A stretch of 64,000 bases of DNA from Eledone cirrhosa. Taxonomy: Eukaryota. Shown one piece after another: positions 10,731 to 14,465 of the stretch (its first letter is position 1; every line of letters starts with the position of its first letter). The stretch covers positions 352,036,001-352,100,000 of the forward strand of contig OZ024740.1 in assembly GCA_964016885.1 (NCBI GenBank), written 5' to 3'. The translations under genes and the position numbers were made by a program. Below the pieces are notes generated by a model, which was given only the letters and a program-made list of their open reading frames with translations, ran no database searches and was not told where the DNA came from.

Positions 10731-10769
10731 TAATATAAGATCAAAAGATGGTTAAAGGAGTTCAATATA

Positions 10770-10836
10770 TTTTATTATGCGCATTTCAAAAACAAACATC
10801 ATCAAACAATAATATTTGTGTTTTCATCAGATAAAA
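10770..10836 (-). ncRNA. Minimal type-I hammerhead ribozyme (mirror copy)
   Basis: Exact reverse complement of 10952-11018. Confidence 0.8.
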
Positions 10837-10951
10837 CAGGAGAACATGATATGAAGGCTAAAAAAACACTTGTTGATAGTGCAGTTTTAAATCAACATAT
10901 CAACTGCACTATCAACAAGTGTTTTTTTAGCCTTCATATCATGTTCTCCTG

Positions 10952-11018
10952 TTTTATCTGATGAAAACACAAATATTATTGTTTGATGATGTTTGTTTTT
11001 GAAATGCGCATAATAAAA
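10952..11018 (+). ncRNA. Minimal type-I hammerhead ribozyme
   Basis: Stem I TTTTAT/ATAAAA, core CTGATGA (10958-10964), 16-bp stem II with one mismatch, GAAA (11001-11004), stem III A-T-GCGC-A-T, cleavage triplet AUA. Confidence 0.8.
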
Positions 11019-11144
11019 TATATTGAACTCCTTTAACCATCTTTTGATCTTATATTATGCATACTCCAGTCCCACAAACTGTAGAGTGCTTCTTATCCGA
11101 TATCTGCATTGCTTTATTCTACTACAATAAAACTCACCTCCTAC

Positions 11145-11942
11145 ATATATATATATATATATATATATTTATATATATATATATATATATTTATATATAT
11201 ATATATATATATATATATATATTTATATATATATATATATATATATTTATATATATATATATATATATATATATATATTTATATATATATATATATATAT
11301 ATATATATTTATATATATATATATATATATATATATATATATATATTTATATATATATATATATATATATATATATTTATATATATATATATATATATAT
11401 ATATATTTATATATATATATATATATATATATATATATATATTTATATATATATATATATATAAATATATATATATATATATAAATATATATAAATATAT
11501 ATATATATATATATATATATATATATATAAATATATATATATATATATATATATATATATATATATAATATAAATATATATATAAATATATATATATAAA
11601 TATATATATATAAATATATATATATATATATAAATATATATATATATATATAAATATATATATATAAATATATATATATAAATATATATATATAAATATA
11701 TAAATATATATATATATAAATATATATATATATATATATATATATATATATATATATATATATATAAATATATAAATATATATATATAAATATATATATA
11801 AATATATATATATATATAAATATATATATATAAATATATATATATATATAAATATATATATATATATATATATAAATATATATATATATATAAATATATA
11901 TATATATAAATATATATATATATAAATATATATATATATATA
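11145..11942. repeat. (TA)n array
   Basis: Direct reading. Confidence 0.95.
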
Positions 11943-12040
11943 ACGAAGGAAATGTGGTAAGGAACCAGGTGGACCATAACGCCCCAAAGTACTCAATACT
12001 TAGGGTAGTAGAGTGGGTAATAGGAACAAGTAAGACCCTT
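11943..12040 (-). mobile_element. Short 3'-end fragment of a Penelope-like element between TA arrays
   Basis: CACTCTACTACCCTAAGTATTGAGTAC motif, shared with other TA-embedded fragments. Confidence 0.5.
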
Positions 12041-12209
12041 ATATATATATATATATATATATATATTTATATTAGAAAGTGAGGTTTTTTTTACAAAATG
12101 AAAAATAACCAAGGTGTCCTACACGAGTGGAGGTATAAAGAAAAAGGGATGAAATCGAAAATGCAACTGAAGTCTTATTTTTTAAAAAAATATATATATT
12201 TATTTGGTT

Positions 12210-12247
12210 CCTTTACCGGTTTCGCAGTTCTTCTGCTTTTCAAAAGG
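12210..12247 (-). ncRNA. Minimal hammerhead ribozyme, U3-A8 variant (mirror copy)
   Basis: Reverse complement of 12318-12355. Confidence 0.7.
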
Positions 12248-12317
12248 TGAGTTGAGATGGAGGGTCTGTGGTTTTTCTCACATGTGAGAAAAACCACAGA
12301 CCCTCCATCTCAACTCA

Positions 12318-12355
12318 CCTTTTGAAAAGCAGAAGAACTGCGAAACCGGTAAAGG
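12318..12355 (+). ncRNA. Minimal hammerhead ribozyme, U3-A8 core variant
   Basis: CCTT-TTGAAAA-GCAG(AAGAA)CTGC-GAAA-CCGG-TA-AAGG. Confidence 0.7.
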
Positions 12356-12693
12356 AACCAAATAAATATATATATTTTTTTTTTAAATAAGACTTCAGTT
12401 GCATTTTCGATTTCATACCTTTTTCTTTATATATTTATATATATATATATATATATTTATATATATATATATATATTTATATATATATATTTATATATAT
12501 ATATATATATATTTATATATATATATATATATTTATATATATATATTTATATATATATATATATATTTATATATATATATTTATATATATATATTTATAT
12601 ATATATATTTATATATATATTTATATATATATATATTTATATATATATTTATATATATATATATTTATATATATATATATATATATATATATA

Positions 12694-13623
12694 TGCTCTG
12701 AAAGTACTGTAGCTAGAGTCAGAACTGGTTGGAAAAAGTTCAGAGAGCTTATACCACTATTAGCTGCTAAAGGGTTCTCACTAAAAGTGAAAGGCAGGTT
12801 GTACGATGCCTGCATACGAACAGCAATGCTGCATGGCAGTGAGACCTGGGCATTGTGTGCAGAGGATATACGCAGACTAGAGAGGAACGAAGCTTGCATG
12901 CTCCGCTGGATGTGTAACAGTAATATACGTGAACGGCAAAGCATAAACGAACTAAGGAAAAAATTAGAGATAAGAGGGATCAGATGTTGTTTACTCGAGA
13001 GAAGGCTACGTTGGTATGGACACGTGATGCGCATGAAAGTCGACAGCTGTATAACAAAGTGCAGGGCAATAAAGATAGACGGTAGTCACGGAATAGGCAG
13101 ACCTAGAAAAACCTGGGACGAGCTGATAAACTCCGACATCACACACTTACACCTCTCCAAGACAATGTCACTGGACCGAGACCTTTGGCGGTACTCAGTA
13201 ACAGAGAAGACCCGCCTTACCTAAATATATAGTAAAACCTACTCCAGCCAGTAGGCATCTCTAACAAAATACACCCCGTCCCACCACCACCATCCCCACC
13301 CCATCCACACCACCCCGTTCTATGTAAAGCTATGTTGGTGCCGCGCCATCGAGGCCGAAACAAATGAGATCGTGTAGGTGTCACGACAAAAAAACACACA
13401 GTCCACGCTGTAATGTGGCCGTGTAGGCAACACGGTAAAAACCTCCCAGACCCACACTGTAAATGTGGTTGGTGTTAGGAAGGGCATCCAACTGTAGAAA
13501 ACCTGCCAGACAGTCCTATGCGAGCAAGACAATCACTCTTGCCTCAAGTGGGACTACCCCCGTCCAAACCCATGCAAGCGTGGAACACGGACGTTAAACG
13601 TTGATGATGATGATGATGATGAT
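12694..13623 (+). mobile_element. 5'-truncated RTE-clade LINE: open RT C-terminal frame 12694-13224, 3'UTR, (GAT)n tail
   Basis: Translation [19 protein letters not shown]...MLHGSETW...[12 protein letters not shown]...GRPRKTW is typical of the RTE RT thumb/C-terminal region. Both flanks are (TA)n. Confidence 0.92.
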
Positions 13624-13839
13624 TTACATATATATTTATATATATATATATATATATATATTTATATATATATATATATATATTTATATATATATATATA
13701 TATATTTATATGTAGGAGGTGAGTTTTATTGTAGTACAATAAAGTAATGCAGATATCGGATAAGAAGCACTCTACAGTTTGTAGGACTGGAGTATACATA
13801 ATATATAAGAACAAAAGATGGTTAAAAGAGTTCCATGTA

Positions 13840-13906
13840 TTTTATTATGCGTATTTCAAAAACAAATATCATCATGCAATAATATTTGTGTTTTCATCAG
13901 ATAAAA
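13840..13906 (-). ncRNA. Minimal type-I hammerhead ribozyme (stem III loop ACGC)
   Basis: Mirror of 14357-14423 with one substitution in the stem III loop. Confidence 0.7.
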
Positions 13907-14356
13907 CAGGCAGACATGATATGAAGGTTAAAAAACACTTGTGGGTAGTGCAGTTTTCAATCGGGAAAAATATTTTATTTTGAGGGGGGGGGGATGAAAA
14001 AGAGGAGGAGATGAGAGTAAGAAGTGGAGAGGGAGGAGTATAATGAGGAAGGATGAGGAAGGAAGAGATAGGAGAAGAGATGGGTGATAGAGAGAGAGAG
14101 ATAGCTACAATATATCTTTCTCAGTTATAAAAGCTATCTCTCTCTCTCTATCACCCATCTCTCCTCCTATCTCATCCTTCCTCATTATACTCCTCCCTCT
14201 CCATTTTTTACTCTCATCTCCTCCTCTTTTTCACCCCCCCCCCTCGAAATAAAATATTTTTCCCAATATCACACATCAATCTAAAACTACTTTTCATATG
14301 TTGATTTAAAACTGCACTATCCACAAGTGTTTTAACCTTCATATCATGTCTTCCTG

Positions 14357-14423
14357 TTTTATCTGATGAAAACACAAATATTATTGCATGATGATATTTG
14401 TTTTTGAAATGCGCATAATAAAA
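14357..14423 (+). ncRNA. Minimal type-I hammerhead ribozyme
   Basis: TTTTAT-CTGATGA-stem II-GAAA-TGCGCA-TA-ATAAAA. A stem II G-U pair of the 10.9 kb copy is A-U here, and the other changes fall in the loop. Confidence 0.8.
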
Positions 14424-14465
14424 TACATGGAACTCTTTTAACCATCTTTTGTTCTTATATATTAT

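Follow-up and report, generated by a model that had tools for sequence, protein, structure and literature searches.

The region analysed here (the window) comprises 64,000 nucleotides (nt) of the genome of Eledone cirrhosa (assembly GCA_964016885.1, contig OZ024740.1, positions 352,036,001 to 352,100,000 of the forward strand) and contains a cluster of three palindromes, designated P1, P2 and P3, with a hammerhead ribozyme motif in each arm. This arrangement raises the question of how a ribozyme comes to be doubled head-to-head at three neighbouring sites. A preliminary description of the locus considered the palindromes as non-coding, Penelope-derived or retrozyme-like units made by self-primed foldback synthesis. 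Our results indicate that each of them is a single insertion of the terminal region of a Penelope-like element (PLE) into (TA)n, and that it was likely generated by priming from both nicked strands of the target; we assign to this reading a probability of about 0.7. The parts of it that are directly supported are the membership of PLE families, the TA targets, the target-site duplications (TSDs), the one-tailed ends, the fixed inner end, and a template that is usually common to both arms and spans the ribozyme cut site.

The palindromes were found at about the coordinates first proposed and their arms were aligned. P1 (10730-11058) has perfect arms separated by a 15-nt loop, P2 (12134-12431) has 4 mismatched positions between its arms and no loop, and P3 (13793-14470) has arms of ~95% identity with indels of 38 and 10 nt. 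As previously described, they represent two sequence families inserted in (TA)n, P1 and P3 belonging to family A and P2 to family B, with TA targets in both. Every palindrome bears a one-sided tail of 68-88 nt (88 nt in A and about 68 nt in B). Offsets (+n) are counted throughout from the fixed 5' end (+0) of each family. A descriptor of the type-I hammerhead, applied to the whole window, gave five motifs, every one inside palindrome arms (Table 1), as compared with 0.03 motifs per dinucleotide shuffle (30 shuffles). Six complete hammerheads had been proposed; the sixth, on the minus strand of P3 (13838-13908), has an intact core and a loop 3 (TACGCA) which is not self-complementary, so that core, stems I and II, palindromic loop 3 and NUH are all present in five of the six arms. 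The core in family B is the U3-A8 variant rather than CUGANGA. A scan against Rfam revealed no hammerhead family at E<=10, its 100+ sub-threshold matches to microRNA (miRNA) hairpins being noise, and the RNAfold z-scores of single hammerheads were weak (-0.4 to -1.9) and uninformative on the three-way junction. Recurrent variants affected 0/12 core and 18/96 other sites in family A and 0/12 and 3/61, respectively, in family B, a difference in the direction expected for a conserved core but not significant (p about 0.1, as an estimate); changes in stem II kept the pairing on one side only. The AATAAA reported after the motif is present, but that of family A shares positions with stem I and H17, and another 45-135 nt of arm follow without poly(A). 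It was therefore dropped as a polyadenylation signal or end marker, since the insertions end in TA.

The origin of the arms was sought in the whole genome (3.0 Gb, 1,796 contigs). A 44-mer of subfamily A1 had 1,549 exact matches and a 34-mer of family B had 10,680, while the reversed control k-mers had zero in either family. In longer copies, the arm sequences of both families sit directly upstream and downstream of open reading frames (ORFs) with reverse transcriptase (RT) and GIY-YIG endonuclease. The arms are thus terminal pieces, comprising the pseudo-long terminal repeat (pLTR) and 5' untranslated region (5'UTR), of two protein-coding Penelope-like families, and the Penelope origin proposed before is confirmed. 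Both families have the same order of fixed 5' site, hammerhead, end site 1, end site 2 and ATG and, therefore, P1 and P2 are copies of the 5'UTR start of the element. Longer A copies extend upstream through the 3'UTR into the endonuclease frame. A TATAAAA lies 32 nt upstream of the family B 5' site, whereas family A has no clear TATA box.

Two parents of each family were studied. In family A, one copy (L187) has an 809-codon frame and another (L188) shows the textbook arrangement of an inverted copy followed by a pLTR, an ORF and a second pLTR, the two pLTRs being 100% identical. The frame of L187 contains RW at the N-terminus, DKT, a CxCX5C linker, and CxxC and CxH in the endonuclease, and lacks CCHH; in all these traits it resembles the endonuclease-positive (EN+) PLEs of the Hydra clade (PMC8557442). 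By its motifs, family A would belong to that clade, although it reads RWI where the clade has RWK and its unit measures about 3.5 kb versus a criterion of <3 kb. A Pfam search of its protein gave no match, the RT core aligned weakly with that of family B in BLASTP (E 1e-5), and some of its Atlas neighbours, at 0.96-0.98, carry GIY-YIG or RVT_1. A long asparagine-rich stretch was observed between RT and endonuclease (P0001, L187, 540-660 aa), which recalls the inserts rich in N that Penelopes of rotifers possess (PMC3846280). In addition, the family A endonuclease used as a query returned 59,615 first-look candidates, so Hydra-like PLEs may be very abundant. Regarding family B, one parent (L158) has a 770-codon frame with RVT_1 and GIY-YIG above the Pfam cut-off and another (L159) has tandem pLTRs. 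Both of them encode the two domains, and their protein shows GLKF, DKG, a CX4CxxC linker and CCHH, there is an upstream ORF, and all these features, together with the two domains and the TA targets, are found in Neptune and Nematis EN+ PLEs (PMC8557442). Family B may accordingly be described as Neptune- or Nematis-like by motifs, which do not separate the two.

The genomic copies obey several rules that bear on the route of insertion. Head-to-head pairs comprised 80 of the first 100 matches of the A1 44-mer, exact pairs 38 of 100 matches of the B 34-mer, and close-neighbour motif pairs were head-to-head in 40/41 cases in A and 19/21 in B; one same-strand pair was found, corresponding to an ORF-bearing element. 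Exactly one arm was tailed in 55/55 A pairs and 50/51 B pairs, in the B exception the pair being cut by the locus edge, and two tails were seen in none. TSDs were detected in 21 of the 32 A insertions with interrupted flanks, with a mode of 15 nt (12 cases), and in 3 of 10 such B insertions, all of 11 nt; these lengths are apparent, as they include a few bases common to the element ends. P2 and P3 are each one insertion, because direct repeats of 11 and 15 nt, respectively, bracket the whole unit. Since both outer ends are fixed-site 3' ends of the element within one TSD, either both target strands were primed or one end was trimmed to the fixed site.

The inner ends were also constrained, falling within 4 nt of one position in 46/66 A arms and 34/74 B arms. 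In 10 A junction strands the terminal ATAT is followed by an extra C where the parent predicts G, and at some A junctions (L008-L010) the terminal 8 nt are repeated two or three times. Addition of C opposite the cap is a general habit of RTs, and the inner end in A and B may correspond to the 5' end of a capped messenger RNA (mRNA). Tandem repeats of the last 8-14 nt of the complementary DNA (cDNA), like telomerase-type realignment, were observed at L008, L009, L010 and L021; L009 has three terminal repeats and its tailless arm is absent. Regarding the junctions, the loop-free type with ATAT overlap accounted for 1,162 strand matches in A, at about 580 loci, and a hairpin-compatible one at +14 (3-bp stem, 7-nt loop) for 78 loci. 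At the latter, the looped arm was the tailless one in 26/30 cases and the tailed one in 3. Blunt, single-C (blunt or single-C in L199, L103, L194 and L208) and insertion-bearing junctions were also found, and the joining of two cDNAs at their 3' ends fits all these classes.

Both arms usually derive from a common template. Long arms (1,300 nt, six loci) had 0-2 differences within a locus and 4-16 between loci, and single nucleotide polymorphism calls in B were concordant between arms in 177 cases and discordant in 5, about 50 discordant being expected if they were independent (four clean sites in 49 pairs, L135-L136 being left out as edge-cut duplicates of L160). Apparent discordance at 7 sites in A and 102 in B was rejected as mostly alignment error at the junction plus a slippery T/A tract. 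At +96 to +101 of family B the boundary of that tract is unlike between arms at most loci, and the tailless arm is often all A, which may reflect slippage, conversion or a polishing error. Either arm may extend further 5' (for instance, the tailless arm is longer in L065, L145, L165 and L166). In addition, the arms cross the predicted ribozyme cut site, 0/66 A arms starting at it, while 3/74 B arms, too few to call, begin between +70 and +74, the B cut site being +70. Cleaved RNA was considered as template and discarded, as only 4 of the first 100 A matches to the downstream motif lacked the cut-spanning one. The template RNA is uncleaved and, in consequence, the paired hammerheads would be passengers of insertion.

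The following route would reconcile these results. A GIY-YIG/RT protein would nick both target strands about 11-15 nt apart. One 3'-OH would prime at site 1 of the RNA (+170 and +149 in A and B, respectively) and the other at site 2 (+258 and +217), both being short UA-rich spots of the 5'UTR, and the trailing RT would either displace the leading cDNA or take a sister transcript as its template. If the template is a capped mRNA, each RT would reach its 5' end and leave it after 150-260 nt; in family A a C would be added opposite the cap and the first bases sometimes re-copied. The two cDNA 3' ends would then join head-to-head via a 0-4 nt overlap and be filled in, giving palindromes such as P1 and P2. 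The 26:3 bias fits an earlier arrival of the tailless RT, since it starts 88 nt closer to the 5' end. Random stops on a longer RNA, either tandem or circular, would give P3 and the ORF-bearing palindromes; in this regard, P3 comes from a longer RNA than P1, because its tailless arm reaches about -189. The hammerhead would be doubled only because both cDNAs pass through it on their way from the start sites to the 5' end of the RNA. It had been suggested that the hairpin could mask cleavage, which holds thermodynamically (a read-through P1 transcript is predicted to fold into a ~160-bp hairpin of -258 kcal/mol that buries the motif), but no special purpose is needed, given that uncleaved RNA was the template of the copies and that their symmetry comes from the insertion route. 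Given that the motifs lie on opposite strands, one transcript contains one sense ribozyme and no dimer in cis.

Several points weigh against priming from both strands. The evidence consists of genomic products, with no intermediate observed, and the transcription start at the 5' site is called from sequence signs alone. Part of the pair sample (L001-L060) was selected with a query containing the tail; the 35 A pairs selected by motif alone all obey the one-tail rule (35/35). Solo arms are frequent, mainly in B, so that priming from two ends is not obligatory. Pure TA flanks hide the TSD in 54/86 A and 38/48 B insertions, P1 included, and where the flanks are informative no TSD was found in 11/32 A and 7/10 B insertions. 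The variants common to both arms are equally predicted by foldback or later gene conversion, and the 26:3 bias is also compatible with a tailless cDNA that folds back while a second priming event contributes nothing but the tail. Finally, no strand difference in start site was seen for Poseidon in vitro, so that the one-tail rule was not reproduced (PMC11167929).

Some of these points lead to an unlikely alternative, in which both nicks prime and one cDNA folds back intramolecularly, copying itself until it meets a short second cDNA that provides the outer end or tail only. Variants shared almost always by the two arms would be expected from it, as would the hairpin-compatible +14 junction with its loop on the tailless strand; however, the commonest junctions, such as the ATAT overlaps in A, contain no usable loop, the AT overlap of B lies where the parent has no palindrome, and the blunt or single-C junctions are loop-free, although prior stutter could rescue some of them. 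Pure self-primed foldback on cDNA or on an antisense template, with the endonuclease trimming one end, was put forward for rotifer Penelopes (PMC3846280), and the tail has been attributed to resolution by the endonuclease (PMC8557442). This route, whose self-primed foldback had also been suggested first for the window, accounts for the near identity of the arms, but we consider it very improbable. A tailless cDNA cannot generate the tail, and with a tailed one the tailed arm should exceed the other in length, which is not so in 26/30 of the +14 junctions and in the four loci with a longer tailless arm mentioned above, whereas the extra C and the TATA spacing indicate a capped sense RNA.

The stereotyped size of the short palindromes (motif spacing of 202-291 nt in 28/40 A pairs) and the recurrence of their junctions at many loci could instead suggest a self-propagating, non-autonomous retrozyme- or MITE-like (miniature inverted-repeat transposable element) unit, transcribed whole and mobilised in trans. 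Against it, copies with 99-100% identity have very diverse junctions, none of the arm-specific variants is found repeatedly in different A loci (a comparison of low power), and there is a continuum from short palindromes up to ORF-bearing ones of 6 kb with the same two ends. Arms ending at the cut site are missing in A, as stated above, the motifs are on opposite strands and no tandem arrays of hammerhead units were found among the A and B copies analysed, all of which leaves little room for a retrozyme-like unit. Foldback chimeras are a known artefact of long-read data and the three loci of the window themselves rest on the assembly. Nevertheless, that the palindromes are chimeric-read or assembly artefacts has a negligible probability in view of the TSDs, the fixed one-sided tail, the unlike arms and the structured junctions at hundreds of loci. 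In addition, joints between opposite strands occur in independent Illumina runs (for example, with 22 and 48 reads), as do loose ends in TA, supported by 263 and 229 reads for site 1 and by 88 for site 2, and a tail piece is joined to the +1 cDNA end in 97 reads. These are restriction site-associated DNA data from few loci, which inform on the element family and not on the three window loci, and the symmetric +0 junction was absent among the joints listed.

Priming from both strands could have a wider meaning, which we offer tentatively as it is somewhat less probable than not. It would be the normal mode of PLE integration, in which a dimer of the protein uses one RNA, with its two fixed sites in the 5'UTR, to prime at both nicks, and the trailing RT is the one that leaves the tail. 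As initiation takes place upstream of the ORF, a capped monomeric mRNA would yield only abortive palindromes of solo pLTRs, re-copied at the cap in a telomerase-like manner, and copies with an ORF would depend on RNA that is in tandem or has been circularised by the ribozyme. The same rule would be recorded in three families of this genome, of which two belong to different clades.

Inverted 5'-truncated copies, one-sided tails, pLTR hammerheads and TA targeting have already been described (PMC8557442, PMC3846280, PMC4209133), and what may be new is the mechanistic record of insertion rather than the architecture of the palindrome. Besides the protein motifs, family A shares with Hydra-clade EN+ PLEs the pLTR hammerhead, the (TA)n target, the inverted 5'-truncated copy and the tail at one end (PMC8557442). 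It differs from them in the tail length (88 nt versus a printed 30-40 nt), the 3'UTR of about 0.9-1 kb, RWI for RWK, a readable apparent TSD of 15 nt, and in that the commonest A1 products are solo-pLTR palindromes ending at one fixed site (PMC8557442). Family B, with its clade judged by motifs, differs from Neptune and Nematis PLEs in its 68-nt tail and U3-A8 core (PMC8557442). The type I fold, the tiny palindromic helix III and the U3-A8 covariant are shared with the minimal hammerheads of PLEs, from which family A departs by a long stem II of about 13-16 bp; a U3-A8 core is reported in Schistosoma PLEs, and opposite-strand hammerhead pairs 100-700 bp apart were noted in Schistosoma and apparently not dissected there (PMC4209133).

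With regard to mechanism, purified Poseidon protein nicks and extends both strands, two internal RT starts bound the tail, the RNA is uncleaved and a dimer is predicted (PMC11167929). Poseidon PAc of Anolis thus has in common with A and B two internal RT starts, AT-rich two-strand nicking and an uncleaved template. In contrast to Poseidon (PMC11167929), the A and B start sites are in the 5'UTR before the ATG and are homologous to the target over 2-5 nt of TA, and in any one insertion each end makes use of one of the two. In twin or dual priming of L1, both nicks likewise prime and TSDs bound two inverted pieces, but L1 has pieces without overlap and an arbitrary second site, while in A and B the same RNA stretch is in both arms and both starts are fixed (PMC2837659). 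Non-LTR retrozymes also have type I hammerheads, PLE pLTR ancestry and no coding capacity, but carry at least two same-strand motifs in tandem, as opposed to the inverted pairs with TSDs reported here (10.64898/2026.07.22.740005). In the literature searched we did not find the one-tail-per-pair rule, the cap-end signature or PLE twin priming; subscription papers and supplements may anticipate part of them.

The value of the cluster lies in this record rather than in its ribozyme pairs. The genome has thousands of young insertions in which outer ends, inner junction and target duplication are all readable. The origin of tandem and inverted structures in PLEs was named as open (PMC8557442) and the second-strand steps were left unvalidated (PMC11167929); two-ended priming, if true, would account for the inverted arrangements that have been known in PLEs for a long time. 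For the in vitro assay already available, it would also predict that each strand has one start site, that the joining takes place at the capped end and that the stagger measures 11-15 nt. As for annotation, such hairpins should be taken as abortive retroelement products and not as miRNAs, MITEs or retrozymes. If transcribed, the palindromes would be a large potential source of long double-stranded RNA.

Table 1. Features of the palindrome cluster in the window.
Feature	Position	Strand	Remarks
P1 tailless arm, family A (A1 subfamily)	10730..10901	-	+170 back to +0, extra C at 10901
Hammerhead, minimal type-I	10768..10838	-	Descriptor; CUGAUGA core, loop 3 UGCGCA
P1 tailed arm	10902..11058	+	+14 to +170
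Hammerhead, minimal type-I	10950..11020	+	Predicted cleavage after 11012 (+125)
P1 one-sided tail, 88 nt	11059..11146	+	+171 to +258; in full-length copies runs on into 5'UTR and ORF
Family C tail-side fragment	11943..12038	-	Third palindrome-forming, TA-targeting family
P2 TSD, left copy	12060..12070	.	Apparent 11 nt
P2 one-sided tail, family B	12071..12133	-	To +217
P2 tailed arm, family B	12134..12283	-	U3-A8-core hammerhead at 12210-12247
P2 tailless arm	12282..12431	+	+0 to +149; hammerhead at 12318-12355
P2 junction	12282-12283		Loop-free, 2-nt AT overlap
P2 TSD, right copy	12428..12438	.	
Unrelated LINE 3' end	12695..13625	+	175-codon frame
P3 TSD, left copy	13697..13711	.	Apparent 15 nt
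P3 one-sided tail, family A (A3 subfamily)	13711..13797	-	
P3 tailed arm	13798..14106	-	Without 38 nt of opposite arm; hammerhead 13838-13908, loop 3 mutated to UACGCA
P3 tailless arm	14107..14470	+	About -189 to +170; hammerhead at 14355-14425
P3 TSD, right copy	14463..14477	.	

Family C forms the same tailed palindromes (L168:3260-3539, L227, L027, L048 and about 25 more loci). Its parent has a type-I hammerhead with a U3-A8 core, a long stem II loop and a full 5-bp stem III; short copies start inside loop II and carry half the ribozyme only, and the fragment in the window begins about at the predicted cut site. A and B are inserted side by side within one TA run at L005, L021 and L042. In public runs (X4-X10), 23-42% of sampled P1 words were present in contigs of several other organisms; one of these runs (X4) was compared with P1 in detail and 2 of its records fitted. 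No RNA run was among the matches listed in the sequencing-run search with P1.

The cluster had been described as free of ORFs. It contains, however, an unrelated 5'-truncated 3' end of a long interspersed element (LINE), presumably RTE-like by its motifs, with a 175-codon C-terminal frame and a (GAT)n tail. The 3' half of this fragment (13175-13620) has an inverted copy of 99% identity at 3112-3557, across an 8-kb TA array. From 3557 to 10730 the window consists of about 7 kb of near-pure interrupted (TA)n, and several element families accumulate there and in neighbouring arrays.

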